From: a virus
Taxonomy: Duplodnaviria; Caudoviricetes
Virus record (IMG/VR): IMGVR_UViG_3300035208_002851
Coordinates: 36,979-100,978 of that record
DNA: 64,000 nucleotides
Reading direction: 5' to 3' (one strand)
Part shown: piece after piece, positions 45,106 to 62,641 of the stretch
Position numbering within the stretch: position 1 is the stretch's first letter
Layout of the letters: each line of letters starts with the position of its first letter
Program-made: the position numbers and the translations under genes
The notes under the pieces: model-generated
What the model saw: only the letters and a program-made list of their open reading frames with translations
Told to the model about the DNA's origin: nothing
Databases searched by the model: none

Positions 45106-45321
45106 CTAAGGATTGTTTTCAAGATAAAACCGTACTTGAGTGCACATACGGAGACCTTCATCGGGTTCTATCCGGCAATCTTCTCCTGGATTTTCCAGGC
45201 AGTCTGTCTGGTATTCACAGTCTACACAACAAATTGTACATGGGTGACCTTCTAGGAGCCTTTGACAGTCCCACTTGTTAAGAGTCTGGTCTACTTTTTT
45301 ACCGCCGATATACTTCTTCAT
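45106..45321 (-). CDS. IGG-motif Cys-rich microprotein (N-terminal motif)
   Basis: MKKYIGGKKVDQ. Confidence 0.7.
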   Translation of the reverse strand: MKKYIGGKKVDQTLNKWDCQRLLEGHPCTICCVDCEYQTDCLENPGEDCRIEPDEGLRMCTQVRFYLENNP

Positions 45322-45324
45322 TTC

Positions 45325-45522
45325 TCAAGTTCCCTTCCAGCATTTGTCATTATAATGAGGTCCACAAATTCTGCAGGTACAACCCTTTGTTCCTATAAAT
45401 CCTTGATTAACTCTTGGAAGACCACAGTGACCGTTACAAGTACTCTCCCCATGACATGTTTGACATTTGAACCTGAAGCCTGCTGTCTGGATTTTTTTCT
45501 TTCCACCAATATATTGCTTCAT
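45325..45522 (-). CDS. IGG-motif Cys-rich microprotein (N-terminal)
   Basis: MKQYIGGKKKIQ. Confidence 0.7.
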   Translation of the reverse strand: MKQYIGGKKKIQTAGFRFKCQTCHGESTCNGHCGLPRVNQGFIGTKGCTCRICGPHYNDKCWKGT

Positions 45523-46043
45523 TTCTTCTTCTTTTTCTCCTGTATATGCATAGGCTCTGCATAGTAGACCTTTCGGGTTCCTGCAAGGTTGCCTAAGGTT
45601 TCGGCATTAAGCATGATTGCGCCGTCTGGTATTACGACACATCCTGTTTCGTCTGTGTATGCTGTGCCTATATGATACTTCATAGTTTCACCTTATTTGG
45701 TGGTTGTTTGGGATTTTTTTTGCCTCAATTTCTTCTATTAGAAGTTTGTAACTTGGAGCTGCACACACCCCGCAATTCTTTTTGGAATATCTGCGATGCT
45801 TACAGTATGAACCATGAGGTGTTTTTGGTGTTCTTGTTTCTTGGCAAATTCTTGTCATAGTTTACTCACACTTTTAAGTATTCTGAAAGGTCTATTAAAA
45901 GCTATTGCTCTACAGAGGTTCGCCCTCATTAACATCCTCTTCCTCTTCGTTTGCTACAGCTTTGCTTCTGTGAAAGTGTTCACTTTGTGGAGAACAACCT
46001 CGTAGGGTATCTACTTTAGATTTCTTCGTCGTATAACTCACCT

Positions 46044-46367
46044 CTATTTCATTTGTGAAACTCGGTAACCACCGATGATTTTCTTATCTGGTTTAACATA
46101 TTGAGTGTAGTTTATGAGTTCCCAAACTCTTAGACTCCAGTTGTATTGATACCATGATCCATCTTCAAGTACAACGAATCCCACTCCTCTCGTAAATGGT
46201 ACATTGGTGTCTTTTACTTTTCCTCCACAAGTTTCACAAACTGGATGTGCAGTCATTTTTGGTTTATTTGGAACATTAAATTGAACTAAACTAATAGGGT
46301 TGTTAGCCATTACATTATGACACCAAGGACACAAATAAACTTTTTCTACAGGTTGCATTTTTTCCAA
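46044..46367 (-). CDS. IGG-motif Zn-ribbon microprotein (C-terminal)
   Basis: KKIIGGYRVSQMK*. Confidence 0.7.
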   Translation of the reverse strand: MEKMQPVEKVYLCPWCHNVMANNPISLVQFNVPNKPKMTAHPVCETCGGKVKDTNVPFTRGVGFVVLEDGSWYQYNWSLRVWELINYTQYVKPDKKIIGGYRVSQMK

Positions 46368-46627
46368 CTACCGTGAAAATTGAAAGTTGATCCATCTGGT
46401 AGAATTATGTATTCAGGACCATAAATTCCATCATTTTGGTGGTTTACACACCTAAAGTGTCTGCCTCCGACGCGTATCACATCTTCTCTCGAATTGTAAC
46501 GGAGTTCATCTCCTGCAAACCCACAGGCCCATCCTCCATCAGTATCGTCCCTAAGTTCACCGTGGTTTTCACAGAGACATCTGCGCAAGCCCTGTTGAAC
46601 TTTTCTTCCACCTATATATTGCTTCAT
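46346..46627 (-). CDS. IGG-motif microprotein (N-terminal)
   Basis: MKQYIGGRKVQQ. Confidence 0.7.
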   Translation of the reverse strand: MKQYIGGRKVQQGLRRCLCENHGELRDDTDGGWACGFAGDELRYNSREDVIRVGGRHFRCVNHQNDGIYGPEYIILPDGSTFNFHGSWKKCNL

Positions 46628-46821
46628 TGTTCGATCCTAAACTCCAAATCGCATACTGCGGGAGACATCTGTCCTCCAAGACATCTACCACAGACACATG
46701 TTCCTTTGTTGCATTTTTCCAATGCATTTCTACATCTAAAGATTCTACCGCAGTCTACACATTTAATATGTGTGATGTCCTTATCTTGGATTAGCTTTGT
46801 TCCACCTATATAGGTTTTCAT
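46624..46821 (-). CDS. IGG-motif Cys-rich microprotein (N-terminal)
   Basis: MKTYIGGTKLIQ; ATGA overlap at 46818-46821. Confidence 0.7.
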   Translation of the reverse strand: MKTYIGGTKLIQDKDITHIKCVDCGRIFRCRNALEKCNKGTCVCGRCLGGQMSPAVCDLEFRIEQ

Positions 46822-47033
46822 TCTATGTTCCACTTCTTTTTCCATTCTTCATAACCAGGAGTATTTACCCAACAACTTGGGTAAGAATTACCGGAGCAAT
46901 CAGGACATCTACATGTATTTTTAAACGGTTTATTACGTCCATTACACAAATTACATGTAAATGTTTTACCACACTCTGTACACTTTTGGTTACCATTTTG
47001 GTCTCTTTTAAAGCCACCGATATAGTGTTTCAT
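46818..47033 (-). CDS. IGG-motif Cys-rich microprotein (N-terminal)
   Basis: MKHYIGGFKRDQ. Confidence 0.7.
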   Translation of the reverse strand: MKHYIGGFKRDQNGNQKCTECGKTFTCNLCNGRNKPFKNTCRCPDCSGNSYPSCWVNTPGYEEWKKKWNIE

Positions 47034-47034
47034 T

Positions 47035-47238
47035 TTAACCAAACCTCGTTTTGCATTTAAAGGGTGTATTAGGATCAACATGAATTCGGCAGAAGCAGAA
47101 TGTAGTACCTTTAATTTTAACTTCGTCTTTACATTCACCATTACATATGAATGATTTTCCTCCACACACATTACATATTTTTGTAAAGGTCTTCAAATTT
47201 TGATCCACTTTAGCTCCACCAATGTAAGTTTTAGTCAT
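47035..47238 (-). CDS. IGG-motif Cys-rich microprotein (N-terminal)
   Basis: MTKTYIGGAKVDQ. Confidence 0.7.
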   Translation of the reverse strand: MTKTYIGGAKVDQNLKTFTKICNVCGGKSFICNGECKDEVKIKGTTFCFCRIHVDPNTPFKCKTRFG

Positions 47239-47242
47239 GCTT

Positions 47243-47356
47243 TTAGCCCTCCAAAGTGGATATTAACCAGCCCATAACACCTATTAGTATTAATACTGGT
47301 AGAAGCAGTAAAACAAGCAACTTTGACCGTTTTCGGCGCTTCTTAGTTTTACTCAT
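47243..47356 (-). CDS. 37-aa single-TM peptide (not in ORF track)
   Basis: MSKTKKRRKRSKLLVLLLLPVLILIGVMGWLISTLEG. Confidence 0.45.
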   Translation of the reverse strand: MSKTKKRRKRSKLLVLLLLPVLILIGVMGWLISTLEG

Positions 47357-47391
47357 AGTGTACACATCTATAGAGACTAATATTACGGAGC

Positions 47392-47592
47392 TTAAATAGT
47401 TTTAGTTTCTCTCAGGAGATCGTTTTTACCAATAATGTCGCACGATTCTAATAGTAAACATTGAAAGCAAAAACGGTCTTTAAATCCGTTGCATAGATGT
47501 ATCCCGAATTCATCAATTCTGATTTGAAATTTTTGATCCCGAGGATCAAGTTTACGTTGATCCCGTTTGGCACCGCCTATATAGACTTTCAT
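47392..47592 (-). CDS. IGG-motif microprotein (N-terminal)
   Basis: MKVYIGGAKRDQ. Confidence 0.7.
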   Translation of the reverse strand: MKVYIGGAKRDQRKLDPRDQKFQIRIDEFGIHLCNGFKDRFCFQCLLLESCDIIGKNDLLRETKTI

Positions 47593-47798
47593 TGTATGAC
47601 AGCACAGCCTCCTATAAACTGCGGGTTTCCCTTTCTTTCAGTAACCATTTTAAAATGACACATTCCTTCATAATCAGGATCACATATACGACATGTGCGG
47701 CTGCAAGAAGATTTTTTATAGGCACTACAATCTGTAGAAGTGCAAATAAATTTGCCTTTACCACAGTGTGTACATGTTTTAACAACCTGTTGTGACAT
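47589..47798 (-). CDS. IGG-motif Cys-rich microprotein (C-terminal)
   Basis: PQFIGGCAVIQ*. Confidence 0.7.
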   Translation of the reverse strand: MSQQVVKTCTHCGKGKFICTSTDCSAYKKSSCSRTCRICDPDYEGMCHFKMVTERKGNPQFIGGCAVIQ

Positions 47799-47919
47799 AG
47801 TTTTTACTCTTCGTAGTTACACAACGTGAAGGATTATTTATAGATTCTCATCCTTGAGGCTTCACCCGTGATAACGAAGCTTTATATAGTCCTTAAAGCT
47901 GCTTAAAGCTGTGTAAACT

Positions 47920-48126
47920 ATGAAGCAATATATAGGCGGGCACAAGGTGAACCAAAACGAACGACCACGTTGCTGTGCTAACTGTTATTTTTTCATTTCA
48001 TCACCATATGAAAAATTATGTATGACTAATGGTAATGTATTTGATTTGGTAGAAGATTGGGGATTACAAACAGACTATTCAACTATAGGTAGAGAATGTC
48101 GTGAATTTAAGCCGCGCGTTGCGTAA
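47920..48126 (+). CDS. IGG-motif Cys-rich microprotein (N-terminal)
   Basis: MKQYIGGHKVNQ; own promoter at 47876. Confidence 0.7.
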   Translation: MKQYIGGHKVNQNERPRCCANCYFFISSPYEKLCMTNGNVFDLVEDWGLQTDYSTIGRECREFKPRVA

Positions 48127-48432
48127 GCTTTATATTAACCGAAGTGTAACTCTTGTAACGCGCAACAAATCGTAAAAAAGAGCATAGCGCACATAAAAAA
48201 GGAGAAGAGAAGCAAAGAGGGGTGGGGGATGTTGGTTTTTCTCTCATTCTTTACCCTCCCTCACCCCTTGATCCCTCACAATTCTAAAAGAAAGAGAAAA
48301 GAAAGGCGGAAAGGGTGGGCTGAGGAGAGCTGGTTTGCGCCAGCTTGCGATAATGCACTCCACGGAACACGGTGTGATCCCGTATATAGTTCGTGGCATC
48401 CCCGCAAACTTAAGTAAAAATGATGATCCAAA

Positions 48433-49003: not shown

Positions 49004-49261
49004 ATGATAGTATACCATGTTATCGGTGCTGGCAAGCTTAAGAGATGTCTATTAACAGGGTATCTACCTGGTCCCGTTAGGGCCTGGAAGCAAATCTCTT
49101 CCGCAGAACGTTTCAGCAAGCAAACTGGTAGAAGTATTATACTTAGGTTAAAGTTTCCCGAAGATGGTTCAGTACAACCATTGGGAGGGCACCGCAACGA
49201 AGCAGTCTACATAGTCGGAAACTATAGTTTGAAAGGAATCTTTGGTAACATGAGCAGGTGA
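49004..49261 (+). CDS. Small protein, possibly ADP-ribosyltransferase-like fold
   Basis: VYH...L...G.L..PV..W....A..F...IILR resembles minimal H-type ART domains. Confidence 0.3.
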   Translation: MIVYHVIGAGKLKRCLLTGYLPGPVRAWKQISSAERFSKQTGRSIILRLKFPEDGSVQPLGGHRNEAVYIVGNYSLKGIFGNMSR

Positions 49262-49521
49262 ATCTATTGAAAAATTACATAGGCGGTAAAAAAGTTGTAC
49301 AGTCTATAGGTAGTACACCATTATTAGCCTGTACTGCTTTTTCTATAAGACATGAACGTTGCCGGTATTGTTGTTTCATCTGTGAACATTTATCCCACTG
49401 CTTCCGTGAATGGGAAAGAAGAGAATATGATCATCAAGGTTTCAATTGTTCTGGTCACTGCCCAGATACACAGGATTATGTTAAAAAATATGGCTTGCCT
49501 CCAAGGGTGATAGAAACATGA
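49258..49521 (+). CDS. IGG-motif Cys-rich microprotein (N-terminal)
   Basis: KNYIGGKKVVQ; paralog of the next gene. Confidence 0.7.
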   Translation: MNLLKNYIGGKKVVQSIGSTPLLACTAFSIRHERCRYCCFICEHLSHCFREWERREYDHQGFNCSGHCPDTQDYVKKYGLPPRVIET

Positions 49522-49751
49522 AGCAATACATAGGCGGAGCTAAAGTAAACCAGTCAAATAGTTTATCTGACTTAAAGTGCGCCAGTTTTGAAAATGTGGA
49601 GACACGATGCGGTCAGTGTTGTTTGACTTGTAAAGATTTACCTAACTGTTCCAGAGAGTGGAATGCAGGAAACTATGGTAGAGCGAGAGACTGTGGTTGG
49701 TGTCCTGCTGTATATGATTATGTTAAAATATATGGCGTTCCTCGAAACTGA
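49518..49751 (+). CDS. IGG-motif Cys-rich microprotein (N-terminal)
   Basis: MKQYIGGAKVNQ; shares RC..CC..C..L..C.REW...CP...DYVK.YG.P with 49258. Confidence 0.7.
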   Translation: MKQYIGGAKVNQSNSLSDLKCASFENVETRCGQCCLTCKDLPNCSREWNAGNYGRARDCGWCPAVYDYVKIYGVPRN

Positions 49752-49801
49752 GTTTCAAAAACTTTATATTGACCTGAAAGCATTCTTAGAAGTGAGCATT
49801 T

Positions 49802-50781: not shown

Positions 50782-50785
50782 AAGC

Positions 50786-51049
50786 ATGAAATGTCCTATA
50801 TGTGGAAGTTCAACAATATTTAATGATTATAGTGGACTAAGTTTGGCTATTAAAGGTTTGCCAGAAAATTGGAAAGCCCTATATTTAGAAGGATTTATGT
50901 GTTTACAATGTGGTGATTCAACAAATAGTTTCATCCTTTTAAAAGATGGTAGACTTTATATTTACAAAGATGATGATGTTTGGACATTAATTAGAAACAC
51001 AACTCCAGATCCCAAAAGAATCGGTGGTTACAAGGTGATTCAGAAATGA
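50786..51049 (+). CDS. IGG-motif Zn-ribbon microprotein (C-terminal)
   Basis: MKCPICG...CLQC...LKDG.LY...W; PKRIGGYKVIQK*. Confidence 0.7.
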   Translation: MKCPICGSSTIFNDYSGLSLAIKGLPENWKALYLEGFMCLQCGDSTNSFILLKDGRLYIYKDDDVWTLIRNTTPDPKRIGGYKVIQK

Positions 51050-51317
51050 CAGAGTTAAACTGCCCAAAGTGTGGAAACCCTCTTTTACAAAGAGACAGGT
51101 ATTCCCATGATTCTCATTATAATATTCCTAGTAGTTTGTTTGAGGATCATATCGCACTTCAATGTAGAAATTGTAGTGTATATTGTTATTATGTGCTTCT
51201 ACCTAACGGAGAGTTGTATAACTACCAAGGTCTTATAGATTGGGTGCTGGTAAGGCAAAAAAAAAGAAGAGACAGTGTGACCCATCGAAGATTATAGGCG
51301 GAGCGTTTGTACAATGA
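51046..51317 (+). pseudogene. IGG-motif Zn-ribbon microprotein split by a frameshift at an A9 tract
   Basis: A9 at 51257-51265; the -1 frame gives KKKRQCDPSKIIGGAFVQ* ending at the ATGA overlap. Confidence 0.65.
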
Positions 51318-51613
51318 GGTGTCCCATGCATGGCTGTGAAATGGAAAACAAGTCTGGAGTAGTTAGTCACCCAACATCCTGGAGTATTGAAACTTTAATG
51401 AATGGGGAAATCCCTTTAGGTACACTAGTTCAAGATAATACGGCTTGGTACTGTAAAGAATGTACACATAGGTGGTATGCTTATATACCACATAATCATA
51501 CTTTATATCATTTCGATCATATTTCCTCGGCTTGGAAAGCTGTGAAAGTTATGCCGGTTTCAAATCGCAAGTGCGACCCGTCTAAAATTATTGGAGGAAA
51601 ATTCGTACAATGA
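51314..51613 (+). CDS. IGG-motif Zn-ribbon microprotein (C-terminal)
   Basis: KCDPSKIIGGKFVQ*. Confidence 0.7.
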   Translation: MRCPMHGCEMENKSGVVSHPTSWSIETLMNGEIPLGTLVQDNTAWYCKECTHRWYAYIPHNHTLYHFDHISSAWKAVKVMPVSNRKCDPSKIIGGKFVQ

Positions 51614-51832
51614 GGTGTCCGGTATGCGGAAATGAAAAAATGGAATTTGATGAATTTGTACAGCAATACTATTGCATAGACTGTTGCCTATCTACTCACA
51701 ATAATGAATGCTGGTTTTCTCCTAATCAAGATGGTAGTATAAACACAGCATCATACTAATAAGGTTTTCTATCTTATAAGCAAAAGAAAGGTTTCACCCG
51801 ACAAAATTATAGGTGGTAAATTCGTACAATGA
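51610..51832 (+). pseudogene. IGG-motif Zn-ribbon microprotein with internal frameshift (not in ORF track)
   Basis: MRCPVCG...CIDCC stops at 51759; the +1 frame reads QHHTNKVFYLISKRKVSPDKIIGGKFVQ*. Confidence 0.6.
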
Positions 51833-52092
51833 AGTGCCCAGTTTGTGGAAATGAACTTACTGAAATTAACAGTCCTATACTTTTAAACCGTCGTAATGGA
51901 CCAGAAACACACCATTGTCACAAATGCTGTCGTAAAGAAGGTAATAACGATAATCAATGTAGATTTAAATTAGAGTCTGGAGGAGTCCTGCTACAGGTTA
52001 CTACAGGTAGACGTTTCGCCGTTTTTTCGGTAAAACTAAGAAAGGTTGACTCTAAGAAGATCATTGGAGGAAGATTCATTGCGCAAGCTTAA
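51829..52092 (+). CDS. IGG-motif Zn-ribbon microprotein (C-terminal)
   Basis: DSKKIIGGRFIAQA*. Confidence 0.7.
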   Translation: MKCPVCGNELTEINSPILLNRRNGPETHHCHKCCRKEGNNDNQCRFKLESGGVLLQVTTGRRFAVFSVKLRKVDSKKIIGGRFIAQA

Positions 52093-52866: not shown

Positions 52867-53106
52867 GTGGGGATTGAGTTGAAAAATTATATTGGTGGTA
52901 AAAAGTTGGATCAGTCTCATAGAGTTCTACAGAGGATTTGCAGTTGCGGCGAACACTTTACTTGTGAGGGAGAATGCCATGATGTTGAAAGAATTAAATC
53001 ACCAGAAAACTGTAACTGCGGAGATTGTACTAACATTCGAGGATTTTATTCTGCTGGTTCACCACATTGGTGTAAATCACGATTCCCGAATGGGAGGCCA
53101 CAGTAG
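52867..53106 (+). CDS. IGG-motif Cys-rich microprotein (N-terminal)
   Basis: KNYIGGKKLDQ. Confidence 0.7.
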   Translation: MGIELKNYIGGKKLDQSHRVLQRICSCGEHFTCEGECHDVERIKSPENCNCGDCTNIRGFYSAGSPHWCKSRFPNGRPQ

Positions 53107-53331
53107 ATGAAAAATTATATCGGTGGAACCAAAGTTAATCAAGCGGGATTTCCGAAAAAATGTGCCATGTGTAAAAAAATTTTCACTTGCCAAAATGAAT
53201 GTGGAATTAGGGAAAGAATAACTAATATGGACCAATGTGACTGTCCTTCGTGTGCACAGCGATATGATCATTACCCAGAAGGTTCGCCAGCGTACTGTAG
53301 AACGAGATTCCCAGAAAGACATCCGCGCTAA
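53107..53331 (+). CDS. IGG-motif Cys-rich microprotein (N-terminal)
   Basis: MKNYIGGTKVNQ; paralog of 52867 (FTC..EC...ERI.....C.C..C...GSP..C..RFP). Confidence 0.7.
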   Translation: MKNYIGGTKVNQAGFPKKCAMCKKIFTCQNECGIRERITNMDQCDCPSCAQRYDHYPEGSPAYCRTRFPERHPR

Positions 53332-53397: not shown

Positions 53398-53607
53398 ATG
53401 AAAACTGTAAAAATTGGTAGATTCGGACAGCAATTAAAAGAAATCGCCTTTTCAGATGGCGAAAATGTCAACGATGCGCTTACCGCAGCAAAAGAAACCC
53501 TCAAAAAGGGCGAAACTTTAACCATTGACGGCGAAACTGTTCGTGGTAGCTACGTCTTTGAAGATGGCGACGTAATCATCATCGAAGCATCCACCACCGG
53601 CGCATAA
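53398..53607 (+). CDS. Ubiquitin-like (beta-grasp) protein
   Basis: 69 aa; V.DAL..A, IDGE, EDGDVIII, C-terminus STTGA; first gene of the E2-JAB-E1 cluster. Confidence 0.75.
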   Translation: MKTVKIGRFGQQLKEIAFSDGENVNDALTAAKETLKKGETLTIDGETVRGSYVFEDGDVIIIEASTTGA

Positions 53608-53776: not shown

Positions 53777-55033
53777 TTGAATATAACTTTCGGAAAATTC
53801 GGTGAAGAAGACGAAGATCCACCGATTAAACCTTCAGACTTACAAAGCTTGAAGGACTTCATCACTTCTTTGGTGAATACTCTTAAGCTAAAGAACTACC
53901 GTGAAATCTACGTTGCTGGCCCGCATCAATGCTACAGCCAAGAATACGAACCCAGGACAAAACAAAAAGACATCCTTGAAATCTACTTCTACAGCTTACC
54001 AGATGGGTTAAGCGGTGACTTTGATCGCATTGACCAAATCGTCGCTAACGGCAACACAATCGTTCTCAGAGAAGGTCAAAAAGATTCCATCAAAATTCTT
54101 TCAACGACAGCAAGCTACAAATCTATAGAGGACGACGAAGGTCGACTGATTGCACTCATAAAAGACAACCAAATGTGGGTTCTATGTGACTTGCTACACA
54201 ATGTTGGCACATCTACAGAGGCACAAAGCGTTGCAAAGGATGTCATGCGCTACATCGTTGACATATATTTCAATCCCCCGACAGAAGTGGAACTACGTAA
54301 ACGAGCTGCGGAGAAAATTGATGCCATCATCGAAGAACATTTCGGTAAACACACAAAAGACCTTGAACAGAGAGTCAAAAGTTTAACAGCGGATCTACAA
54401 GAGCGAGAACGGCAGTTAGCGCAGAGTGTCAGAAACTTAGCTTATGAGAGCGAAATGCTTGACCTTGCGAAACGGCGTGTGAAACCAAATGCAGAACAAA
54501 TCATGCGCAACATGGAGAAGATGCCTTTCGTCAAAAAAATCTACTTCAAAAACGGCGTTGTCACAGTTGACACAAAACCAATCAACATCGGTCCCTTCGA
54601 GTACGGTTCGTGGACAATTCAGTTGACACAAGACATAGCCAAATTTACACATGAAGTACAATCAGCCAGCGTTAGACACCCCTACGAGTACGAAGACCAC
54701 AGATTTTGCATGGGCGGATTCGAGAGAAACTACGCATTAGCTGTTTCATCTGGAGAATTCGACAAAGCGTTAACCATCTGTAGACTTGAAATCACAAATT
54801 ATTCAACAGAGACAAGGCAGAAGCCACTTGAAGATTTCCTGAAGAAAATCATGGGCACAGCAAGATTCAACAAAGTCCTCAAAGAAGTTAGGGAAGAAAA
54901 GTTCCCAGACGCAGATGGTCTATTCATCTCAAAGATAGGCGGTGCTACAGTAACGTTTATCGCAACAAAGAAAGCGGCCGATGGCCATGAAGTACCAACA
55001 GTAAAGAGTGTGGAGATCAACTATGCCGAATGA
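53777..55033 (+). CDS. Coiled-coil + prokaryotic E2-like (UBC-fold) protein
   Basis: HPY(x)6FCMG (54677-54715) matches the E2 HP(x)n-C active-site motif; operon context. Confidence 0.55.
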   Translation: MNITFGKFGEEDEDPPIKPSDLQSLKDFITSLVNTLKLKNYREIYVAGPHQCYSQEYEPRTKQKDILEIYFYSLPDGLSGDFDRIDQIVANGNTIVLREGQKDSIKILSTTASYKSIEDDEGRLIALIKDNQMWVLCDLLHNVGTSTEAQSVAKDVMRYIVDIYFNPPTEVELRKRAAEKIDAIIEEHFGKHTKDLEQRVKSLTADLQERERQLAQSVRNLAYESEMLDLAKRRVKPNAEQIMRNMEKMPFVKKIYFKNGVVTVDTKPINIGPFEYGSWTIQLTQDIAKFTHEVQSASVRHPYEYEDHRFCMGGFERNYALAVSSGEFDKALTICRLEITNYSTETRQKPLEDFLKKIMGTARFNKVLKEVREEKFPDADGLFISKIGGATVTFIATKKAADGHEVPTVKSVEINYAE

Positions 55034-56135
55034 GATACAAATAGACTACCCAATCTACTCAAAGATGTTCGCTTACGCTGAAATCGCCAAGAAAACATTT
55101 GACTCAGAAGTCGGCGGCTACCTCATCATAGATGAACTTGAGGGAGGGGGCCTAAAGGTAGAAGACATTATTCTACCCAAGCAAACTGTAAGCGGCGCTA
55201 CGTTTACGACAAAACCAGGACTCAAAGTGGATCCATCAGTGATACCGAAGATACGCGGATTCTGGCATTCCCACCATAACATGGGCACATTCCACAGTTC
55301 TACAGACGACACAACCCTTGGGGACAAATGGAATGGAGAAACCCATGGCAGCGCACCATATGCAGTCTCTATAGTCGTTGCTTTCCCAAACAAGATCATC
55401 GCCTACGTTCAATACTTCAAGCCTATTTTGCTTGAAAAGCTTGAAATCCCAGTAGTGGTGTTACACCCACCGGACGTAACAGGACTCTATGAGAAGTGCG
55501 AAGCTGAGGTCAAGGCGCAAGTATCTAAAGAAGTCTACAATCAAAATTGGAAATGGATGGGAGGCGACTATGAGGAGCTTCCCTCCCCAAAAGACACTGG
55601 AGACGCATCAAGTCCTACAACAGATGAAGAAATGAAAGCGGTCACAGAAAAGTTCCTGCTTGACGAGGCATGTGACGCAATTATAGATCCAACAACAGGT
55701 ATGAGTGTGACGGAGCTTAAAGTACATGGAATGTGGAACCCTACTAAGTACGACCACGACTTAGCAGTACAAGTTAAGCAGATGGTAGAACTTCTAAGAG
55801 AGAAGTACCGCAAGCCCACGGATGAAGAAAAACTGAAATTCGGACAATGCGTCCATATATGTCTCAACCAGCAAAACAAGCCAATATGTTTCATACAAGG
55901 CAAAAACTATGACTGCTCGAAGTGTCAACGAAACCCCAAAAACAAAAAGACCGAAGAAAAGAAGATGTGTGATCCTCTCAATTTAAGCACAGGTTGCCCG
56001 GCAAACCCCGAAATGAAAGGACAATGCCATACATGTAATTTAAACATTTATATGTATGAGCAACCTAAAACTACCGTGGCTGAGCCATCATCAGAAGTTG
56101 TGCAACCAATAGAAGCTTCACAACCCTCATCTTAG
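55023..56135 (+). CDS. JAB/MPN+ isopeptidase with C-terminal Cys-rich region
   Basis: EVGGY, LPKQ.VS, WHSHHNMGTFHSSTD. Confidence 0.85.
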   Translation: MPNEIQIDYPIYSKMFAYAEIAKKTFDSEVGGYLIIDELEGGGLKVEDIILPKQTVSGATFTTKPGLKVDPSVIPKIRGFWHSHHNMGTFHSSTDDTTLGDKWNGETHGSAPYAVSIVVAFPNKIIAYVQYFKPILLEKLEIPVVVLHPPDVTGLYEKCEAEVKAQVSKEVYNQNWKWMGGDYEELPSPKDTGDASSPTTDEEMKAVTEKFLLDEACDAIIDPTTGMSVTELKVHGMWNPTKYDHDLAVQVKQMVELLREKYRKPTDEEKLKFGQCVHICLNQQNKPICFIQGKNYDCSKCQRNPKNKKTEEKKMCDPLNLSTGCPANPEMKGQCHTCNLNIYMYEQPKTTVAEPSSEVVQPIEASQPSS

Positions 56136-56192: not shown

Positions 56193-56864
56193 ATGTCAGA
56201 ATACCTTAGACAACAGGCTATAGTTAACCAAGAAAAACTCGCCGCACTGCGCATAGCTATTATCGGTGCTGGAAGTATAGGTAGTTTTACCGCGCTTGCG
56301 CTGACAAAGATGGGATGCGAGCATCTTACCCTCTGGGACAAAGACACTGTAGAACTCCATAATGTATCGAACCAATTTTTCAACAAAGACTCTATTGGAA
56401 TCCCGAAAGTAGTTGCTACAAGCCAGGAATGTCAAAGGTATACCCCGAAAAGTGTTGACATTATGTACTACCATGAGTTCTATGAGGGACAGAAACTTGA
56501 CAATTTCGACATCGTGATTGCCTTGACAGACAACATTGAAGGGCGCAAGGCTGCCTTTGAAGCATCTAAGGCTTCGCCAAAGGTTGCACTGTACATGGAT
56601 GGTCGCATGGGTGGCGAACTTTTCAGGACGTTTTGTTTCAATCCTAAAAATGTGGCGTTAGCAACGGAGTATTACAATGACTACATAGACGGTGTGCAGA
56701 ATGAGGAGCTGCCATGCACCGCGCGTACTATAGTGTACAACGTGATGATGGCTTCGAGCGTGATAGCCAGCTTTGTCAAGAAGTTTACACAGGGCGAGGC
56801 AACGCCGTTTCAGTTGTTGTTCAACTTTGGTAACTATAGTTTCTCAAAGTCGAAGCTGGAGTAG
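56193..56864 (+). CDS. ThiF/E1-like adenylyltransferase
   Basis: IIGAGSIGS, D.DTVE.HN..NQ, G.PKV, TDN..GR, DGRMG, LPCT. Confidence 0.9.
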   Translation: MSEYLRQQAIVNQEKLAALRIAIIGAGSIGSFTALALTKMGCEHLTLWDKDTVELHNVSNQFFNKDSIGIPKVVATSQECQRYTPKSVDIMYYHEFYEGQKLDNFDIVIALTDNIEGRKAAFEASKASPKVALYMDGRMGGELFRTFCFNPKNVALATEYYNDYIDGVQNEELPCTARTIVYNVMMASSVIASFVKKFTQGEATPFQLLFNFGNYSFSKSKLE

Positions 56865-56870
56865 GTAACA

Positions 56871-57077
56871 TTGAGATGTAAAAAATGTGGTAGAACATTC
56901 GTCTGTTATAGTAGCAAAACACATAAACCATGTTTTGCTGTGATTAATAATCCTAATTACAGTTGTGTGTGTGACGATTGCAGTACCTCTTCAAAGGGGC
57001 AATGTGTTACTACGCTTGCGCAAGCAGAGGATAAAAAAGTGATAGGCGGCTACAGAGTTCTACAGAGAAGGTGTTAA
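56871..57077 (+). CDS. IGG-motif Cys-rich microprotein (C-terminal)
   Basis: DKKVIGGYRVLQRRC*. Confidence 0.7.
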   Translation: MRCKKCGRTFVCYSSKTHKPCFAVINNPNYSCVCDDCSTSSKGQCVTTLAQAEDKKVIGGYRVLQRRC

Positions 57078-57286
57078 ACGTGAAATGCAGAAAATGCGGA
57101 AGAATGTTTAAGTGTTCACCCAAAGAAGGTGAAGGTGCATGCTCAAGTGCTGGTACAAATAGTTATGTTTGCATGTGTTCCGTCTGCGATGAGGGATTCA
57201 CGAGCCAATTATGTACAACTATTCCTATAGTTAAGGATAAAAAGTTTATTGGCGGTTACAAAATTTTACAGAAGGTTCAAAAATGA
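57071..57286 (+). CDS. IGG-motif Cys-rich microprotein (C-terminal)
   Basis: DKKFIGGYKILQKVQK*; paralog of 56871. Confidence 0.7.
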   Translation: MLNVKCRKCGRMFKCSPKEGEGACSSAGTNSYVCMCSVCDEGFTSQLCTTIPIVKDKKFIGGYKILQKVQK

Positions 57287-58326
57287 AAATACTAAGAAGA
57301 TTGAAAGTGCCGACGGGAGACATTCTGGTAGTAGAAGGACAAAAAGGCTCTCTGGAGATGCTTAGTCTCGGAGACTACGGTAAGGATGTCAACCTTAAAG
57401 CTGACTGCCTAGGTTTAACCAGAGATATAGCTGACGTTAAACATACAAAGTTGTTACCTTTTGAAGAAAAATGGGTCATAACCATTTCAACGCAATATGG
57501 ATGTGAATCGTATTGCAGTTTTTGTGATGTTCCCAAATGTAACACGATTGCTTTCCGCCCAGATATGAAAGTCTATGGTTCTCTCTATAAAAATCGTAAT
57601 GCAACTTTTAATGACTTAATCCAGCAGGTATTGATAGGTGCACATTTACATCCAGAAGTAAAGTTCTCTAAACACTTAAACATCCATTTCGCAAGAATGG
57701 GTGAACCAACATGGAACCCGAATGTTCTTGACGCAGCCAAATTCTTTAGAGAGCATCTTTATCCAGAATATAAGGTGCACCCAGTAGTTTCTACTATGAT
57801 GCCTAATAACAATGAATGGTTAAAAACATTCATACACAACTGGATGAGACTGAAAAATCGCTTGTATGAAGGCAATGCAGGGTTGCAACTTAGCATAAAT
57901 TCTACAAACGAAAAAGAGAGGTTCAAAATGTTTAGCGGCAACGCTTGTACTCTTCCTCAGATTGAAAAGATAATGGAAGGGGTTGTTCCATTTGGTAGAA
58001 AAATCACGTTGAACTTTGCGGTTGCTGACTTTGAGATCAATCCGAAAGTTCTATTAGATTACTTTAACCCAGAGTATTACATCATAAAATTAACACCGAT
58101 GCACAAAACTCTAAAGGCTTTGGAAAACAAGATAAAGACAAAAGGTGACTACACAACGATGTATCCTTATGCTGAAATAGAGAAGTCCTTGAAAGAAGCA
58201 GGCTATGATGTACTTGTCTTTATAGCATCGAAAGAGGAGGATTTGGGTAGAATTACTTGCGGTAACGCAATCTTGAGTGGAACACTGCCTGAGGTTCCAT
58301 ATGAGGAAGTAGGTGAGAAACTTTGA
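57283..58326 (+). CDS. Radical SAM enzyme, RlmN/Cfr-like
   Basis: STQYGCESYCSFC (CxxxCxxC), MGEP, VST, QLS, C-terminal CG. Confidence 0.8.
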   Translation: MKILRRLKVPTGDILVVEGQKGSLEMLSLGDYGKDVNLKADCLGLTRDIADVKHTKLLPFEEKWVITISTQYGCESYCSFCDVPKCNTIAFRPDMKVYGSLYKNRNATFNDLIQQVLIGAHLHPEVKFSKHLNIHFARMGEPTWNPNVLDAAKFFREHLYPEYKVHPVVSTMMPNNNEWLKTFIHNWMRLKNRLYEGNAGLQLSINSTNEKERFKMFSGNACTLPQIEKIMEGVVPFGRKITLNFAVADFEINPKVLLDYFNPEYYIIKLTPMHKTLKALENKIKTKGDYTTMYPYAEIEKSLKEAGYDVLVFIASKEEDLGRITCGNAILSGTLPEVPYEEVGEKL

Positions 58327-58703
58327 AAGATATAAAAATTTGTTTAGAATGCGGATGTCTGGATTACCGTCAGAAAGAAGAGGCACATATAATACTTAGC
58401 GGTGACATAACTTACAGTTTTGATGAAGTACAAGGACATTATATTATAAATGAAAATACCTACGATGAGGATGCTGCCGAAGGTGCAGACTGGGAAAATG
58501 AAGGTGCCCCAGAATGCCAAAATTGCGAGTCTGGTGATCTATTGGATGTTCAACTCACGGAAGAACAATACAGATATTTGATAGCTTTAGAGGATGAAAA
58601 GCGCATAGAGGTAGCTAAAGCTATCAAAGAAGGAAAGTTTACACAGGCGAAGCCAAGAAAAAACGCGAAATATATTGGGGGAGGAAAAGTGTTACAATGT
58701 TGA
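58323..58703 (+). CDS. IGG-motif acidic Zn-ribbon protein (C-terminal)
   Basis: CLEC...CQNC; NAKYIGGGKVLQC*. Confidence 0.7.
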   Translation: MKDIKICLECGCLDYRQKEEAHIILSGDITYSFDEVQGHYIINENTYDEDAAEGADWENEGAPECQNCESGDLLDVQLTEEQYRYLIALEDEKRIEVAKAIKEGKFTQAKPRKNAKYIGGGKVLQC

Positions 58704-58930
58704 AGCATACTTGTAGAACTTGCCATAGAGAATTCTACTGTGTAACGAGTCCTGATGCGGAAGGATTAACTATAGAATACGCTTGTAATAAGAAAACTGA
58801 TGAGGAACATTGCCTTACTATGTGTAATTGTAGTGACTGTGTAGGTCACACCAGAGTTTGCAAGAGCATCTACAGTCTGCCGAAGGTAAGAAAGGAAAAA
58901 TTCATTGGAGGGGAACAGAGATTTCAATAG
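58697..58930 (+). CDS. IGG-motif Cys-rich microprotein (C-terminal)
   Basis: KEKFIGGEQRFQ*. Confidence 0.7.
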   Translation: MLKHTCRTCHREFYCVTSPDAEGLTIEYACNKKTDEEHCLTMCNCSDCVGHTRVCKSIYSLPKVRKEKFIGGEQRFQ

Positions 58931-59172
58931 AGAGAAAACTGAAAGTGGGAGACAGGGTTTGGATAAAGTTTGGAGATAGTTTTTTCCGAAAGGAATATCC
59001 TCATGCACCAATGCTTGTTGAAATAGTTGATTGTAGCGGATCATCCTTTGGAGCACGTCCCGTTAACAAAAGTATGTACCAATACGCTTATGGTTATATG
59101 ATTGATGAGATTTTTGGGGGACCGAAGGTGAGGAAGGCTAATTTCATAGGAGGAGTACAAGTTCAGCAATAA
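58927..59172 (+). CDS. IGG-motif SH3/KOW-like microprotein (C-terminal); start uncertain
   Basis: KVGDRVWI; KANFIGGVQVQQ*; in-frame ATA at 58927 or upstream TTG at 58858. Confidence 0.6.
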   Translation: MERKLKVGDRVWIKFGDSFFRKEYPHAPMLVEIVDCSGSSFGARPVNKSMYQYAYGYMIDEIFGGPKVRKANFIGGVQVQQ

Positions 59173-59413
59173 ATACAAGGTAGGGGATAAGGTATGGATT
59201 AGATACGGCAATGATAATTGCCGCGGAAATCTTCCACACCAATCTGTTTTGGTGAAAATAACAGATATTAGTAGTAGTCCGCAAGGATTCCATGCGGTAG
59301 CTGTAGCTGTAGAATTATCCAAAATAGATTATTGGCATTCTACGAATGAAATTATATATGCTCCTAAAGAGAGAAAGGGAAACTTTATTGGTGGACACCA
59401 AGTCTACCAGTAG
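59171..59413 (+). CDS. IGG-motif SH3/KOW-like microprotein (C-terminal); no canonical start (not in ORF track)
   Basis: KYKVGDKVWI...KGNFIGGHQVYQ*; paralog of the previous gene. Confidence 0.6.
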   Translation, partial: KYKVGDKVWIRYGNDNCRGNLPHQSVLVKITDISSSPQGFHAVAVAVELSKIDYWHSTNEIIYAPKERKGNFIGGHQVYQ

Positions 59414-59475
59414 AAGAGAAGCCAGAAAATATATATAAACCTAAAGAGTAGAACTTATAGAAGTGTAGATTTATT

Positions 59476-60186
59476 ATGGAGTTTCTTTCCACTACAAGTG
59501 AATTTTCGTTTTCGGTAGAAGAAGCCCTTAAAACAGGGTTCTATGTGTCTGGGACCCCTGGGTCGGGAAAGTCGGACATAGCTATGCTTTGCGCGGATGA
59601 GCTCCGCAAGGCGGGAGCGATAGTTATGGTGTGGGATCCTTCTCAGGATTGGCTTGAACGTTACCCTATAGATTATGTGATAAAGTTTAAGAACCCTCCA
59701 TATGCGCTGGAAGATATACAACTTAAGGACGCTATTTTTGATACCTCAACACTAACTGTCCTACAGATGCAGGAAGTGGTAGATAGATTTTGCTGGTTAC
59801 TTTTTAATTATCAAGCCAAAAAAGCAAAAGAGGACAGAAAGCAGTTTTTCTTGATTTTTGAGGAAGCGCAAGTTATGATTCCACAAGGTGTAATGAGGTC
59901 TAAGAGACTACAGAATGTGGCAAGAGTAATAACTGTTGGTAGAAACTATAAGATACGGGTTGGAATTGTAACGCAGTTTGCGGCTACTGTGGATAAAGAT
60001 GCTCTAAAATCCGCAAAAATGCGGTGGTTCGGATGGACAGACGAATATAATGATGTCTCGTATATTGGAAAAATGGTGGGCGAGGAAGAAGCTAAAGGAT
60101 TGCGTTATTACGAACCGGGAACGTTCTTATTCAATTACACAGCCAAGAATACAATGGAAAAGATAAAGATTAAGCCTTACAAGTAG
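59476..60186 (+). CDS. HerA/FtsK-superfamily P-loop ATPase
   Basis: GTPGSGKS, VWDP, LIFEEAQ, GRNY...VTQ. Confidence 0.8.
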   Translation: MEFLSTTSEFSFSVEEALKTGFYVSGTPGSGKSDIAMLCADELRKAGAIVMVWDPSQDWLERYPIDYVIKFKNPPYALEDIQLKDAIFDTSTLTVLQMQEVVDRFCWLLFNYQAKKAKEDRKQFFLIFEEAQVMIPQGVMRSKRLQNVARVITVGRNYKIRVGIVTQFAATVDKDALKSAKMRWFGWTDEYNDVSYIGKMVGEEEAKGLRYYEPGTFLFNYTAKNTMEKIKIKPYK

Positions 60187-60261
60187 AAGTGAAACTTTAT
60201 ATATTCCAGTTGTGTAGTGTTTCACAGAACGTTGAAAGCAAAGCTGAAAGAGGAAAAAGAT

Positions 60262-60546
60262 ATGGATTGCCCAAAGTGTGGACGTGAGTTGAAACCGCAG
60301 AGCCATTATTGGCCTGACCCAAAACGCGCAAATGGCGTTGTTCAACATGGTTTACCAGAGGACTGGTATTCTTATTCTAACATAAAGCCGCAGTATGGCG
60401 GAGATTGCTCATATTGTGGCGGTAAGTTCATAAAAATTAAGAACGGTGACATCTACGAATGGCTAGTCGGACACTGGGAGTTGTTCAGCAAAGCTAAAAA
60501 CCATAGAACAAATGTGAAGCCGATTGGAGGAAGATGGGTTCAATGA
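60262..60546 (+). CDS. IGG-motif Zn-ribbon microprotein (C-terminal)
   Basis: MDCPKCG; VKPIGGRWVQ*. Confidence 0.7.
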   Translation: MDCPKCGRELKPQSHYWPDPKRANGVVQHGLPEDWYSYSNIKPQYGGDCSYCGGKFIKIKNGDIYEWLVGHWELFSKAKNHRTNVKPIGGRWVQ

Positions 60547-60812
60547 ATTGTGCAAAATGTGGTTCACCGTTAGTGCGTGGTAGTACCGATGGTTGGAACG
60601 AAGGGTACAATTTTGGCAAAGTCCTACCAAAGGATTGGTTGCAAGGTATCATACGATGGGACTGCAATCATAGTGGTTGTTATCATACTCATATTCAGTT
60701 AAAAGACGGATCTGTTTATGTTTGTTTAAATGGATCTTGGGTTCTACAGAAAAGAAAAGTTACACGTATTGTTCCCAGAGAACAAATCATAGGAGGATAT
60801 TTTGTTCAATGA
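60543..60812 (+). CDS. IGG-motif Zn-ribbon microprotein (C-terminal)
   Basis: MNCAKCG; EQIIGGYFVQ*. Confidence 0.7.
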   Translation: MNCAKCGSPLVRGSTDGWNEGYNFGKVLPKDWLQGIIRWDCNHSGCYHTHIQLKDGSVYVCLNGSWVLQKRKVTRIVPREQIIGGYFVQ

Positions 60813-61075
60813 AGTGCCCAGAGTGTCATAAAACAATACCATTAGCAGGATTTCACCTTAATGAAAGCGATAATTATGGTCATTCTTTACCCACAGGATG
60901 GTGTAAAGATCATAAGTTATATTATTGCTGTCATTGTTCTATCCATGTCGTTTTACTTAAAGATGGCTCAGCCTATCGTTATATAGACGGCGCTGCAAAT
61001 AATTGGGAAAAAATCAAGGTAACAGTAAGAAAAGTACCAAAAAGCCAAATAATAGGAGGACATTTTGTACAATGA
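60809..61075 (+). CDS. IGG-motif Zn-ribbon microprotein (C-terminal)
   Basis: MKCPEC; SQIIGGHFVQ*. Confidence 0.7.
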   Translation: MKCPECHKTIPLAGFHLNESDNYGHSLPTGWCKDHKLYYCCHCSIHVVLLKDGSAYRYIDGAANNWEKIKVTVRKVPKSQIIGGHFVQ

Positions 61076-61419
61076 AAGTCCATAGTGTATGTATCCTGTG
61101 TCTTAAAACATGTAAGCAACCATATTCAGAGTGGGATGATAATCAGCCCGAATTAAAGTTCTGCCCCAACTTTGATGCTCCGCGGAGTAAACTTCCAATA
61201 GAGACTTTGGATGAACTTATAGAAAACGTGAAACCTCAAGTGATACCTACAAGGGGTGTTCTTCCTCAAGATTACCAAAATAAGAGGTTCTACGATTATT
61301 TTGTAGAATTACGTAAAGTTTACATCCCATGCTCAAAGTGTAAACACATGATTGCGCCGGATGAACTCTACAGAGTGATACTGGATGAACCGGTTTGTCA
61401 GAGGTGTGTGAAAACATGA
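61072..61419 (+). CDS. Cys-rich hypothetical protein
   Basis: ATGA-coupled; CxxC pairs. Confidence 0.55.
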   Translation: MKVHSVCILCLKTCKQPYSEWDDNQPELKFCPNFDAPRSKLPIETLDELIENVKPQVIPTRGVLPQDYQNKRFYDYFVELRKVYIPCSKCKHMIAPDELYRVILDEPVCQRCVKT

Positions 61420-61565
61420 GAGCAGTCTGGATTATTTTCTACGCGGGTAGAATACAAGCGGTGCTAAGTACGGAAACTAAGGCAAAGGAATTTTGTGCTT
61501 TCCAGGGAGAGCATCAACTTGACAAGGTGGATTTGTGGTCTTACGAAGTGTGGTTGGTGGAGTAG

Positions 61566-61823
61566 ATGAAGTGTCCAATTTGCAATTCTGATAAACCGTT
61601 TGGAGAAGGAGGTTATTTGGGCACAAATTTAGCTAACGAGTCGGGCTTACCAAAATGGTTTGATGTTATAGATTGCTGTATCTGTTGTGATACAGCGTCC
61701 ATTTTATTAAAGGACGGATCTATCTATACTTGGCCCTTTATACAATCCAAGGATAGATGGACTTTATTCCGCAAACTAATTAAAAATCCTAAATTCATAG
61801 GTGGATTCAAAGTTATACAATAG
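61566..61823 (+). CDS. IGG-motif Zn-ribbon microprotein (C-terminal)
   Basis: MKCPIC; NPKFIGGFKVIQ*. Confidence 0.7.
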   Translation: MKCPICNSDKPFGEGGYLGTNLANESGLPKWFDVIDCCICCDTASILLKDGSIYTWPFIQSKDRWTLFRKLIKNPKFIGGFKVIQ

Positions 61824-62243
61824 GTGAAAACTATGGATGATAACTTAGTAGATAAATTCAAGCAAAGATTCTCATGGTTCCCAAAAAATGACCCAATGTA
61901 TATTAAAGTAACATTTCCTATGTCTATACATTGTGATAATGGATGGTTCGATTTAATTTGGAAACTATGTGAGGATATTGACATCGTGGTTCAGCGAGAA
62001 TCTTGGAAGGATTTCAGGGTTGACCAAATTAAGGAGAAGTTCGGTGGGTTGCGCTTTTACGTTAATGGTGCAAACAAAGAAGTTTTTGACTTGATACATG
62101 AAGCGGAAGCCAAAAGCTTTAAAATTTGCGAAGTTTGCGGGAAGAAGGGTTCGATGCACGTTGGATTTGGCTGGTACAGAACTATATGTGCCAAGTGTGC
62201 TAAGTCGGATCCTAAGAGAACTTGGGTTAAGGTGAAATTATGA
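61824..62243 (+). CDS. Conserved phage protein (GW...QIKEKFGGLRFY...CEVCG family)
   Basis: Recognisable motif of a widespread phage family of unknown function. Confidence 0.6.
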   Translation: MKTMDDNLVDKFKQRFSWFPKNDPMYIKVTFPMSIHCDNGWFDLIWKLCEDIDIVVQRESWKDFRVDQIKEKFGGLRFYVNGANKEVFDLIHEAEAKSFKICEVCGKKGSMHVGFGWYRTICAKCAKSDPKRTWVKVKL

Positions 62244-62641
62244 AAAAATATATTGGGGGGCATAAAGTTGACCAGAGTGGAACAAAGGATAATAAATTCT
62301 GGACTTTTGCGTCAGGTGATTATGATTTTACGCCTTTTTATATGGATACTGATTTGGCAATACCAAATTCTACTATAGAAGTAGAAACGGATGACTTATC
62401 TATAAGACTTGGAGATATTGTCTCTATAGATAGAGATATGAAAGCCGTAAGAACTCAAAATGGAGGAGTACCGATAGGTAGGGTTCGTGGTATTAACGTT
62501 ACTCCAGACAGAGCGGTAGTAACTGTAGAACGACATACTCAAGGAATTATAGGTATTCAGACTACACAGGAAGGGTATGAAGATTTGATGCAGAGAAGAA
62601 GCTTAATCCATTCTGCGTTAGAGTGGCGGCGACGAGGTTAA
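62240..62641 (+). CDS. IGG-motif protein (N-terminal) with capsid-cement-like domain
   Basis: MKKYIGGHKVDQ; I.LGDIV......A......PIG.V. Confidence 0.55.
   Translation: MKKYIGGHKVDQSGTKDNKFWTFASGDYDFTPFYMDTDLAIPNSTIEVETDDLSIRLGDIVSIDRDMKAVRTQNGGVPIGRVRGINVTPDRAVVTVERHTQGIIGIQTTQEGYEDLMQRRSLIHSALEWRRRG

Follow-up and report, generated by a model that had tools for sequence, protein, structure and literature searches.

This account concerns an 11-residue peptide, hereafter the tag, that forms the very first or very last residues of many small proteins encoded in a 64,000-nucleotide stretch of viral DNA (the window), which comprises bases 36979-100978 of the 100,978-bp record IMGVR_UViG_3300035208_002851 of an uncultured virus. 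The first 145 bases of the record recur at its end, so the assembly closes on itself. The genome codes for an HK97-fold major capsid protein (MCP; gene at 17762-18691, minus strand), a portal, a T4-type large terminase and a protease-scaffold fusion, which together identify it as a tailed virus; its large terminase finds nothing closer than about 24% identity among 50,697 deposited phage genomes. The host is probably archaeal, as several features point there, among them the strong TATA-type promoters 35-45 nt ahead of starts; a topoisomerase VI carried by a related contig bears on the same point. The literature searches made here found no description of the tag or of these virus lineages.

A terminal peptide shared by unrelated small proteins

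The tag is portable and lineage-specific, and probably serves small proteins as a terminal address label: it is terminal, non-random and conserved through synonymous codons. The original prediction had listed 31 open reading frames (ORFs) in the window that carry it, 14 at the N-terminus and 17 at the C-terminus, and every one of these was confirmed at the end claimed for it. Six-frame translation of the window yields 45 I-G-G tripeptides, and 31 of them belong to full tags situated 0-9 residues from an ORF end, all falling within 45.1-62.6 kb. The whole genome contains 33 copies on 32 ORFs. The additional ORF (genome 20218-20469) is unique among the tagged ones in lying outside this region and in having a tag at each end; it is located 16.5 kb before the window start, between two genes of the replication region that encode proteins of 215 and 334 residues. 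Apart from this double-tagged ORF, the tags are limited to a single module of 17.5 kb, which is served by strong promoters of its own; no copy was found in the small genes at 27-45 kb, in agreement with the earlier observation that the small genes at 33-45 kb are free of terminal copies. The claim that the motif is enriched at termini also held against a shuffled background: a loose pattern for the core gave 30 terminal matches in the real genome, as against 0-5 in 20 triplet-shuffled genomes.

Pattern searches outside the relatives described below gave no comparable arrays: the tag pattern had at least 119 single matches in Joint Genome Institute (JGI) metagenomes, with no array among the matches listed, and the DNA pattern of the N-terminal tag had one match only in IMG/VR, a high-GC sequence that we attribute to chance. 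Two readings of the tag codons as something other than an ordinary coding sequence were rejected. The K-x-Y-I codons might be taken for a promoter (TATA box), but the real promoters are separate, stronger TATA-type elements located 35-45 nt ahead of the starts, and this reading is further opposed by the non-TATA-like C-terminal copies and the variable third codon positions. An alternative genetic code or read-through is not needed, because the tags end at ordinary stops with overlapping starts.

Codon use in the tag

Codon positions 1 and 2 of the tag carry on average 1.3-1.5 bits of information and position 3 only 0.4-0.6 bits. Isoleucine is encoded by ATA, ATT and ATC, glycine by all four of its codons, glutamine by both CAA and CAG, and valine likewise by all its synonyms. 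As the third positions are free, the peptide is what selection acts on. The earlier argument from synonymous codons to peptide-level selection thus stands, with the addition that the C-terminal copies are constrained at the RNA level too. Their glutamine is CAA in 50 of 57 cases, since CAATGA contains the ATG of the next gene, and this bias together with the overlap indicates the additional constraint. Among 87 C-terminal tags, 64 finish with N-TGA, overlapping the start that follows, and a Shine-Dalgarno (SD)-like word is present in 53; in the related contig L021 (see below) the codons for K-V are mostly AAG GTG, an SD sequence lying 6-7 nt ahead of the following start. C-terminal tag codons therefore have a second use, as the SD sequence and overlapping start of the following gene. 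This double use helps account for the position of the tag directly at the stop, and it may be how the tag arose. Two hallmarks of translational coupling, the stop/start overlap and the SD-like word, are accordingly present, while a third, conservation that lies in the nucleotides and is confined to copies with a start behind them, is not. The N-terminal copies have the same peptide in frame with the body, with AAA GTN codons and no start behind them; their first glycine is never encoded by GGA (0 of 20, compared with a background of 33%). Because these copies lack both a downstream start and SD-like codons, constraint on the RNA is not the whole story.

Some local irregularities were observed among the C-terminal copies. 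Positions 58925-58930 read CAATAG and 59167-59172 read CAATAA, i.e. ATA replaces the ATG of the usual CAATGA, and as a result the starts of the two C-tagged genes that follow are uncertain. Between 51046 and 51832 there are two Zn-ribbon genes whose C-terminal tag is read in a different frame, in one case after a run of nine A; these out-of-frame tags differ from those of their paralogues mostly by synonymous changes, which suggests a homopolymer assembly error, a recent break or programmed slippage.

Related viruses and the redefined motif

The tag is carried by at least six related metagenomic viruses, all of them represented by metagenomic fragments. One of these, the IMG/VR contig G001, has an MCP 89% identical to that of the present virus and at least 17 C-terminal tags; these mostly have another residue in place of the second glycine, and their hydrophobic pair follows a basic R-K-K-G patch. 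Contigs L014-L016 (ENA, Logan) were reached via homologues of a 418-residue E2-like protein of the module. Relatives occur in the ENA samples ERZ27247124, ERZ27247793 and ERZ1292632. A profile of the tagged Zn-ribbon family gave 96 matches in 1.84 billion cluster representatives, 67 of which end in the tag, and three of these matches led to L017, L018 and L019, the first of which has 19 C-terminal tags in 20 kb. A word-based protein search with the alignment of a second, 6-Cys family returned only contigs already in the set.

The tag catalogue comprises 77 tags from four viruses, with more occurring in L017-L019. Across these 77 the only invariant features are [I/V]-G and a Gln five or six residues later, whereas a basic and a hydrophobic residue between the Gly and the Gln, and a basic patch before the core, are merely usual. 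This gives the consensus: basic residues, hydrophobic-[I/V]-G-(G)-x-[K/R]-hydrophobic-x-Q. One Gly is kept in 77 of 77 tags. The second is present in all copies of the window, but is missing from 16 of 19 tags of G001, from most of those of L014 and from all 19 of L017. The motif had been described as I-G-G, a description that fits all window copies but must be relaxed for the relatives, which keep only [I/V]-G plus the Gln. The supposedly invariant Lys of GGxK fared worse, as the residue after G-G, which is Lys here, is Arg, Glu or another residue in the relatives. N-terminal copies were found also in L014, L015 and L019. The idea that the type of tag tracks the accessory rather than the structural module was abandoned, since the comparison with G001 is uninformative: the two viruses diverge in all parts (61% in the portal, 49% in the protease-scaffold fusion, 36% in E2).

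More distant profile matches led to two further lineages with arrays of other terminal sequences. About 26 small ORFs end in K-V-K-V-x-L-[I/V] in the first of these (L021-L023, contigs from Logan SRR9617863 and ENA ERZ27247709; L021:1600-16625, with L021 read over about 45 kb), and in L021 the Leu is retained through both TTR and CTN codons. In the second, L020, which was read over 18 kb, five small ORFs end in E-K-V-x-F-T (L020:4914-8127).

Portability of the tag and the families of tagged proteins

When the tags were removed and the remaining bodies clustered by BLAST, they separated into a 24-member 6-Cys family, a 20-member Zn-ribbon family, an SH3-like family and many singletons. This is consistent, as far as sequence clustering can tell, with the original view that the bodies belong to several unrelated classes. 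Pfam and PHROGs searches with ten tagged proteins found no family beyond weak Zn-ribbon matches. The 6-Cys family includes both N-tagged and C-tagged members, which makes the tag portable, and the N-tagged 6-Cys proteins of the window have untagged homologues in G001. The proposal of a portable, position-independent terminal peptide under protein-level selection is thereby supported.

Comparison between lineages extends this picture. The bodies of L020:7595 and L021:1600 are 46% identical and end in different tags; similarly, among the bodies of L021, one of Zn-ribbon type has an IGG-tagged match in L015 and one of 6-Cys type has IGG-tagged matches in L018. Bodies that are homologous by these matches carry the tag of their resident genome or lineage. 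The coordinates of the tagged genes in the window, and of their principal untagged neighbours, are collected in Table 1.

Table 1. Tagged genes and principal untagged genes of the module, in window coordinates
Coordinates	Strand	Tag	Product and remarks
45106..45321	-	N	Cys-rich microprotein, 71 aa
45325..45522	-	N	6-Cys-knot protein, 65 aa
46044..46367	-	C	Zn-ribbon family protein, 107 aa
46346..46627	-	N	Protein of 93 aa, singleton body
46624..46821	-	N	6-Cys-knot protein, start at 46821
46818..47033	-	N	Cys-rich protein, start at 47033
47035..47238	-	N	6-Cys-knot protein, 67 aa
47392..47592	-	N	Protein of 66 aa; start overlaps stop of upstream C-tagged gene
47589..47798	-	C	6-Cys-knot protein, 69 aa; same body family as N-tagged ones
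47920..48126	+	N	Protein of 68 aa, behind strong TATA-type promoter
49258..49521	+	N	Cys-rich protein
49518..49751	+	N	Cys-rich protein, paralogue of 49258
50786..51049	+	C	Zn-ribbon family protein, 87 aa
51046..51317	+	C, other frame	Zn-ribbon gene; tag after A9 run
51314..51613	+	C	Zn-ribbon protein, 99 aa
51610..51832	+	C, other frame	Zn-ribbon gene
51829..52092	+	C	Zn-ribbon protein, 87 aa
52079..52348	+	N	Cys-free protein, TTG start
52867..53106	+	N	6-Cys-knot protein
53107..53331	+	N	6-Cys-knot protein; G001 homologue untagged
53398..53607	+	none	Ubl (ThiS/SAMP2-like beta-grasp), ends S-T-T-G-A
53777..55033	+	none	E2-like protein
55023..56135	+	none	JAMM/JAB protease, intact motif, C-terminal Cys-rich domain
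56193..56864	+	none	ThiF-type E1, 223 aa
56871..57077	+	C	6-Cys-knot protein
57071..57286	+	C	6-Cys-knot protein
58323..58703	+	C	Zn-ribbon/acidic protein, 126 aa, conserved in 4 viruses
58697..58930	+	C	6-Cys-knot protein
58858..59172	+	C	SH3/KOW-like protein, start uncertain
59249..59413	+	C	Small protein, start uncertain
59476..60186	+	none	STIV2 B204-like FtsK/HerA minimal ATPase inside array
60262..60546	+	C	Zn-ribbon protein
60543..60812	+	C	Zn-ribbon protein
60809..61075	+	C	Zn-ribbon protein
61566..61823	+	C	Zn-ribbon protein
62240..62641	+	N	Protein of 133 aa, singleton body

Untagged genes of the module

The tagged genes surround four untagged ones in the order ubiquitin-like protein (Ubl), E2-like protein, JAB and E1, and both this gene order and the family features of the products support the earlier statement that the tag family brackets a Ubl-E2-JAB-E1 operon. 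The Ubl (69 residues) has a ThiS/SAMP2-like β-grasp model (TM-score 0.75-0.84) and a tail that reads S-T-T-G-A in six of six viruses. The E2-like protein (418 residues; AlphaFold2 model, pLDDT 80) is modelled in four parts: an N domain resembling class I glutamine amidotransferases (GATases) but without the nucleophile Cys, a 60-residue helix (coiled coil), a UBC-like region (residues 235-342) that aligns to many E2s at a middling Z of about 6 over 92-99 residues, and a small C-terminal β domain. An H-P-Y motif and Cys311 are invariant in ten homologues of this protein, and its alignment found no match in GTDB genomes. The JAB protein has an intact JAMM motif (H-x-H-x7-S-x2-D) and a conserved C-terminal Cys-rich (Zn) domain. 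A second JAB-like protein, with a Zn ribbon and the motif H-x-H-x6-S-x2-D, is encoded among the head-assembly genes (window 21063-21797, minus strand) and is 68% identical in G001.

The untagged ATPase at 59476 is a minimal FtsK/HerA enzyme whose nearest relative is the B204 packaging NTPase of STIV2 (Foldseek 7e-11, TM-score 0.66-0.75); it is the second ATPase in a tailed virus that already has a T4-type terminase. A radical S-adenosylmethionine (SAM) protein of the RlmN/Cfr-like type (57283-58326; phrog_24834, 3e-103) was seen in this virus and L015 only; the same module position is occupied in L014 (12391-13233) by a viperin-like radical SAM protein, and G001 and L017 have none. A 421-residue protein (window 62562-63827, minus strand) bounds the module here and in L014, where the copy is 61% identical, and has no match in Pfam, PHROG or NCBIfam. 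Genes on the opposite strand in the arrays of relatives had been guessed to encode HNH proteins, a guess that received no support from Pfam, and scans of the tag region with Rfam and for tRNAs gave no matches.

Each of the six IGG-type genomes whose sequence extends far enough has the operon, interleaved with tagged genes. The four genes of the operon and those for three small untagged proteins (49802, 50524 and 52397) accompany the tags in G001, L014, L015, L017 and L018; the ATPase was seen, likewise inside the array, in G001, L014, L017 and L019, and was not found in the contig fragments L015 and L018. In L020-L023, tblastn over the 18-45 kb read detected no Ubl, E2, JAB or E1 near the arrays, and the only homologue of the core genes of the IGG lineage is an ATPase of 22% identity, with conserved Walker motifs, inside the array of L021. 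Tag arrays are accompanied by Ubl machinery in every IGG-type genome that can be checked, whereas arrays of the L020/L021 type have other tag sequences and no detectable Ubl genes in the 18-45 kb read. Since all cases of co-occurrence come from a single family of syntenic viruses, they count as one evolutionary observation.

A proposed common reader for the tag

A single tag runs through the whole repertoire of a virus and changes between lineages, as is expected if a common reader co-evolves with it. We consider it likely that one such partner reads all the tagged proteins of one virus. Mechanistically, the tag would be a short linear motif, probably a basic β-hairpin or strand, attachable to either end of unrelated proteins, and it could dock on the partner by β-strand addition. 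The approximately 30 Zn-ribbon, Cys-knot and SH3-like bodies might then represent an exchangeable library of effectors or adaptors that are delivered to this partner. As the tags are confined to the module, and the genes of the module travel with them, we tentatively place the reader among its untagged core genes, although the chances of this more specific placement seem to us to fall a little short of even. The candidates would be the Ubl-E2-JAB-E1 set, which resembles the bacterial BilABCD systems, the three small untagged proteins and the B204-like ATPase.

Several observations weigh against this interpretation. No receptor was found, the docking being deduced from the anatomy of the tag. 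The module genes and the tags co-occur only inside one syntenic family, and do not constitute independent evidence. As the arrays of L020 and L021 occur without detectable Ubl, E2, JAB and E1, the Ubl machine cannot be the general reader. The ATPase, for its part, resembles a DNA translocase, and the constraint at the RNA level described above partly explains the C-terminal copies.

One alternative is that the tag has a specific docking site on one of two viral proteins, the E2-like protein or JAB, and that the microproteins are interchangeable substrate adaptors or substrates of the BilABCD-like machine, in the manner of F-box or SOCS-box proteins. Every IGG-type locus with enough sequence has the four genes amid tagged ones, tags with the invariant Gly and Gln were seen only in operon-bearing viruses, and the two extra non-catalytic domains of the E2-like protein, as well as the Zn domain of JAB, could bind a peptide. 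These facts lose force because the co-occurrence is a single phylogenetic event in one syntenic family; moreover, tagged arrays persist in sister lineages where the 18-45 kb read shows no operon, and the tag sequence has no feature linking it to Ubl recognition. A complex prediction for a C-tagged 6-Cys protein with the E2-like protein and JAB gave ipSAE values of 0.01 and 0.07, where the mark is 0.32, and has no bearing either way. We regard this alternative as unlikely. In a more detailed form of this idea, the docking site would be either the GATase-like N domain of E2 or the Zn domain of JAB, perhaps with recognition of the invariant Gln, and the virus would thereby steer Ubl conjugation or deconjugation to many host targets; this version is doubtful to the same degree.

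The tag might instead target the microproteins to the capsid, loading them into the HK97-fold head for co-injection in the way of the capsid targeting sequence (CTS) of T4, the tail of the HK97 protease or the cargo peptides of encapsulins. Such signals are the closest documented precedent for small phage proteins, otherwise unrelated and encoded in a variable locus, that have one short terminal peptide in common; encapsulin cargo peptides act from either terminus, and the virus has both an HK97-fold MCP and a protease-scaffold fusion. However, the tagged genes reside in a separate module, with a promoter type not seen before the structural operon, and no conserved cleavage site lies between the bodies and the C-terminal tags, which leaves capsid loading an unlikely explanation as well.

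It is also conceivable that a hub of the host, such as an unfoldase/protease or chaperone, reads the free ends and gives early microproteins a common fate, e.g. timed turnover. The strictly terminal location and the apparent use of either end are properties of AAA+ recognition tags, a hydrophobic core with basic flanks is a typical chaperone and unfoldase ligand, and lineage-specific tags could follow different hosts. No such motif has been described for archaeal proteases, however, and within the IGG lineage the tag differs considerably between viruses that share 89% identity in their MCPs. We hold a host hub or degron to be rather improbable.

Binding of tags to each other, by which amphipathic β-hairpins or strands would zip N- and C-tagged proteins into mixed oligomers or a larger assembly, could account for the fact that all three tag types form alternating basic/hydrophobic, β-prone strands. 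One protein is tagged at both ends, and at 47592 translational coupling joins two neighbouring genes, one N-tagged and the other C-tagged. On the other hand, the net charge of the tags (+2 to +4) disfavours self-association, and we judge this possibility quite improbable.

If the tag had no function as a protein, it could be a translated gene junction (SD sequence, spacer and overlapping start) spread by cassette duplication and gene conversion. The frequency of N-TGA overlaps, SD-like words and CAA codons in C-terminal copies would follow naturally, as would the AAG GTG codons of L021, where third positions are informative. Such an origin does not cover the N-terminal copies (14 here and more in L014, L015 and L019), nor the free third positions of Ile, Gly and Val, the retention of Leu in L021 through two codon families, and the several C-terminal tags that have no overlapping start after them. 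We find it very improbable as the full explanation.

Least probable of all, and highly so, is the suggestion of the original prediction that the tag is a di-glycine processing site, at which JAB cleavage exposes a C-terminal Gly for E1/E2 conjugation while N-terminal copies supply an acceptor Lys. One Gly is indeed invariant in all 77 tags, the JAMM motif is intact, and BilC cuts between Gly and Ala in the related bacterial system (PMC10557695), where the comparison is apt in that the viral Ubl also ends in G-A. The frequent loss of the second Gly nevertheless weakens this proposal. Furthermore, the four or five residues after the Gly, including the invariant Gln, are conserved no less than those ahead of it, although a leaving group would need no conservation; the tag is unlike the S-T-T-G-A tail of the Ubl; the Lys after G-G is not kept in relatives; cleavage at the N-terminus would free only a heptapeptide; the bodies, to judge from their residue patterns, have Zn-ribbon and Cys-knot signatures rather than Ubl-like ones; and the tags of the sister lineages are without Gly.

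Should the tag indeed be an address read by a common partner, one 11-residue peptide would direct about one third of the accessory proteins to a single reader, which would make that reader a central node of the infection programme and the tag a handle for finding it. The tag also provides a sequence rule for spotting effector libraries in uncultured, probably archaeal viruses, where small genes are mostly unannotated. Its exchange between lineages on homologous bodies offers a natural experiment in the co-evolution of tag and reader, and the double use of the C-terminal tag codons shows selection at the protein and RNA levels sharing the same bases. If the viral Bil-like Ubl machine proved to be the reader, the array and this machine would form the first substrate-adaptor system of any prokaryotic ubiquitin-like pathway.

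Comparison with known systems

The type II BilABCD systems have the gene order Ubl, E2, JAB deubiquitinase and E1, and a Ubl that ends in Gly plus 1-9 residues; the BilC of E. aridi cuts at Gly|Ala, one residue from the Ubl end (PMC10557695). The viral operon shares with these systems (PMC10557695) the gene order, the Gly-Ala end of the Ubl, a ThiF-type E1 and an intact JAMM motif, to which may be added the UBC-like region of the E2, with its His-Pro-x and a Cys. It differs in that type II BilABCD is encoded in a bacterial defence island, whereas its counterpart here is virus-encoded and lies amid tagged microproteins. The viral E2 further has a GATase1-like N domain, a coiled coil and a C-terminal β domain, and the E1 is only 223 residues long.

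The multi-precursor ribosomally synthesized and post-translationally modified peptides (RiPPs), e.g. prochlorosins, where numerous precursors share a conserved leader and a single enzyme, resemble the array in their many small Cys-rich products with one recognition peptide and nearby enzymes that include radical SAM proteins. The tagged bodies, unlike these, are 50-130 residues long with Zn-ribbon signatures, and the peptide has only 11 residues and may occupy either end. A radical SAM enzyme as reader, with the tag as a RiPP leader, was rejected, because its gene is not constant across the tagged viruses: it is absent from G001 and L017, and the viperin-like protein of L014 is unrelated.

Terminal hub motifs, such as the PIP box that binds PCNA and the clamp-binding motifs, are comparable in that one short motif, at either extreme end of the chain, brings many unrelated proteins to the same hub. 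The PIP box itself was excluded, as the logo of the tag does not fit Q-x-x-[ILM]-x-x-[FY]-[FY].

The CTS of T4, found on IPI, IPII, IPIII and Alt, is likewise a peptide of about ten residues on unrelated small phage proteins in a variable locus. It begins with M-K-x-Y, as does the N-terminal tag, occurs at the N-terminus only and is cut off by the prohead protease, which cleaves behind a defined Glu. The sharing of one short peptide, characteristic of the CTS, is also found here, with 32 ORFs in at least five body families plus singletons. The CTS, however, is strictly N-terminal, whereas 17 of the 31 window copies are C-terminal; and it is followed by a cleavage consensus, whereas no site is evident here and the genes lie outside the structural module. 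Encapsulin cargo-loading peptides, which occur at either terminus, and the tail of the HK97 protease are short terminal peptides of hydrophobic, Gly-containing sequence that dock cargo inside an HK97-fold shell. Their similarity to the tag is limited to the hydrophobic-Gly pattern, and one to four cargoes in those systems contrast with dozens of candidates here. The nearest precedents of the tag are the T4 CTS, the encapsulin cargo peptides and PIP-like hub motifs, from each of which it departs in the defining details.

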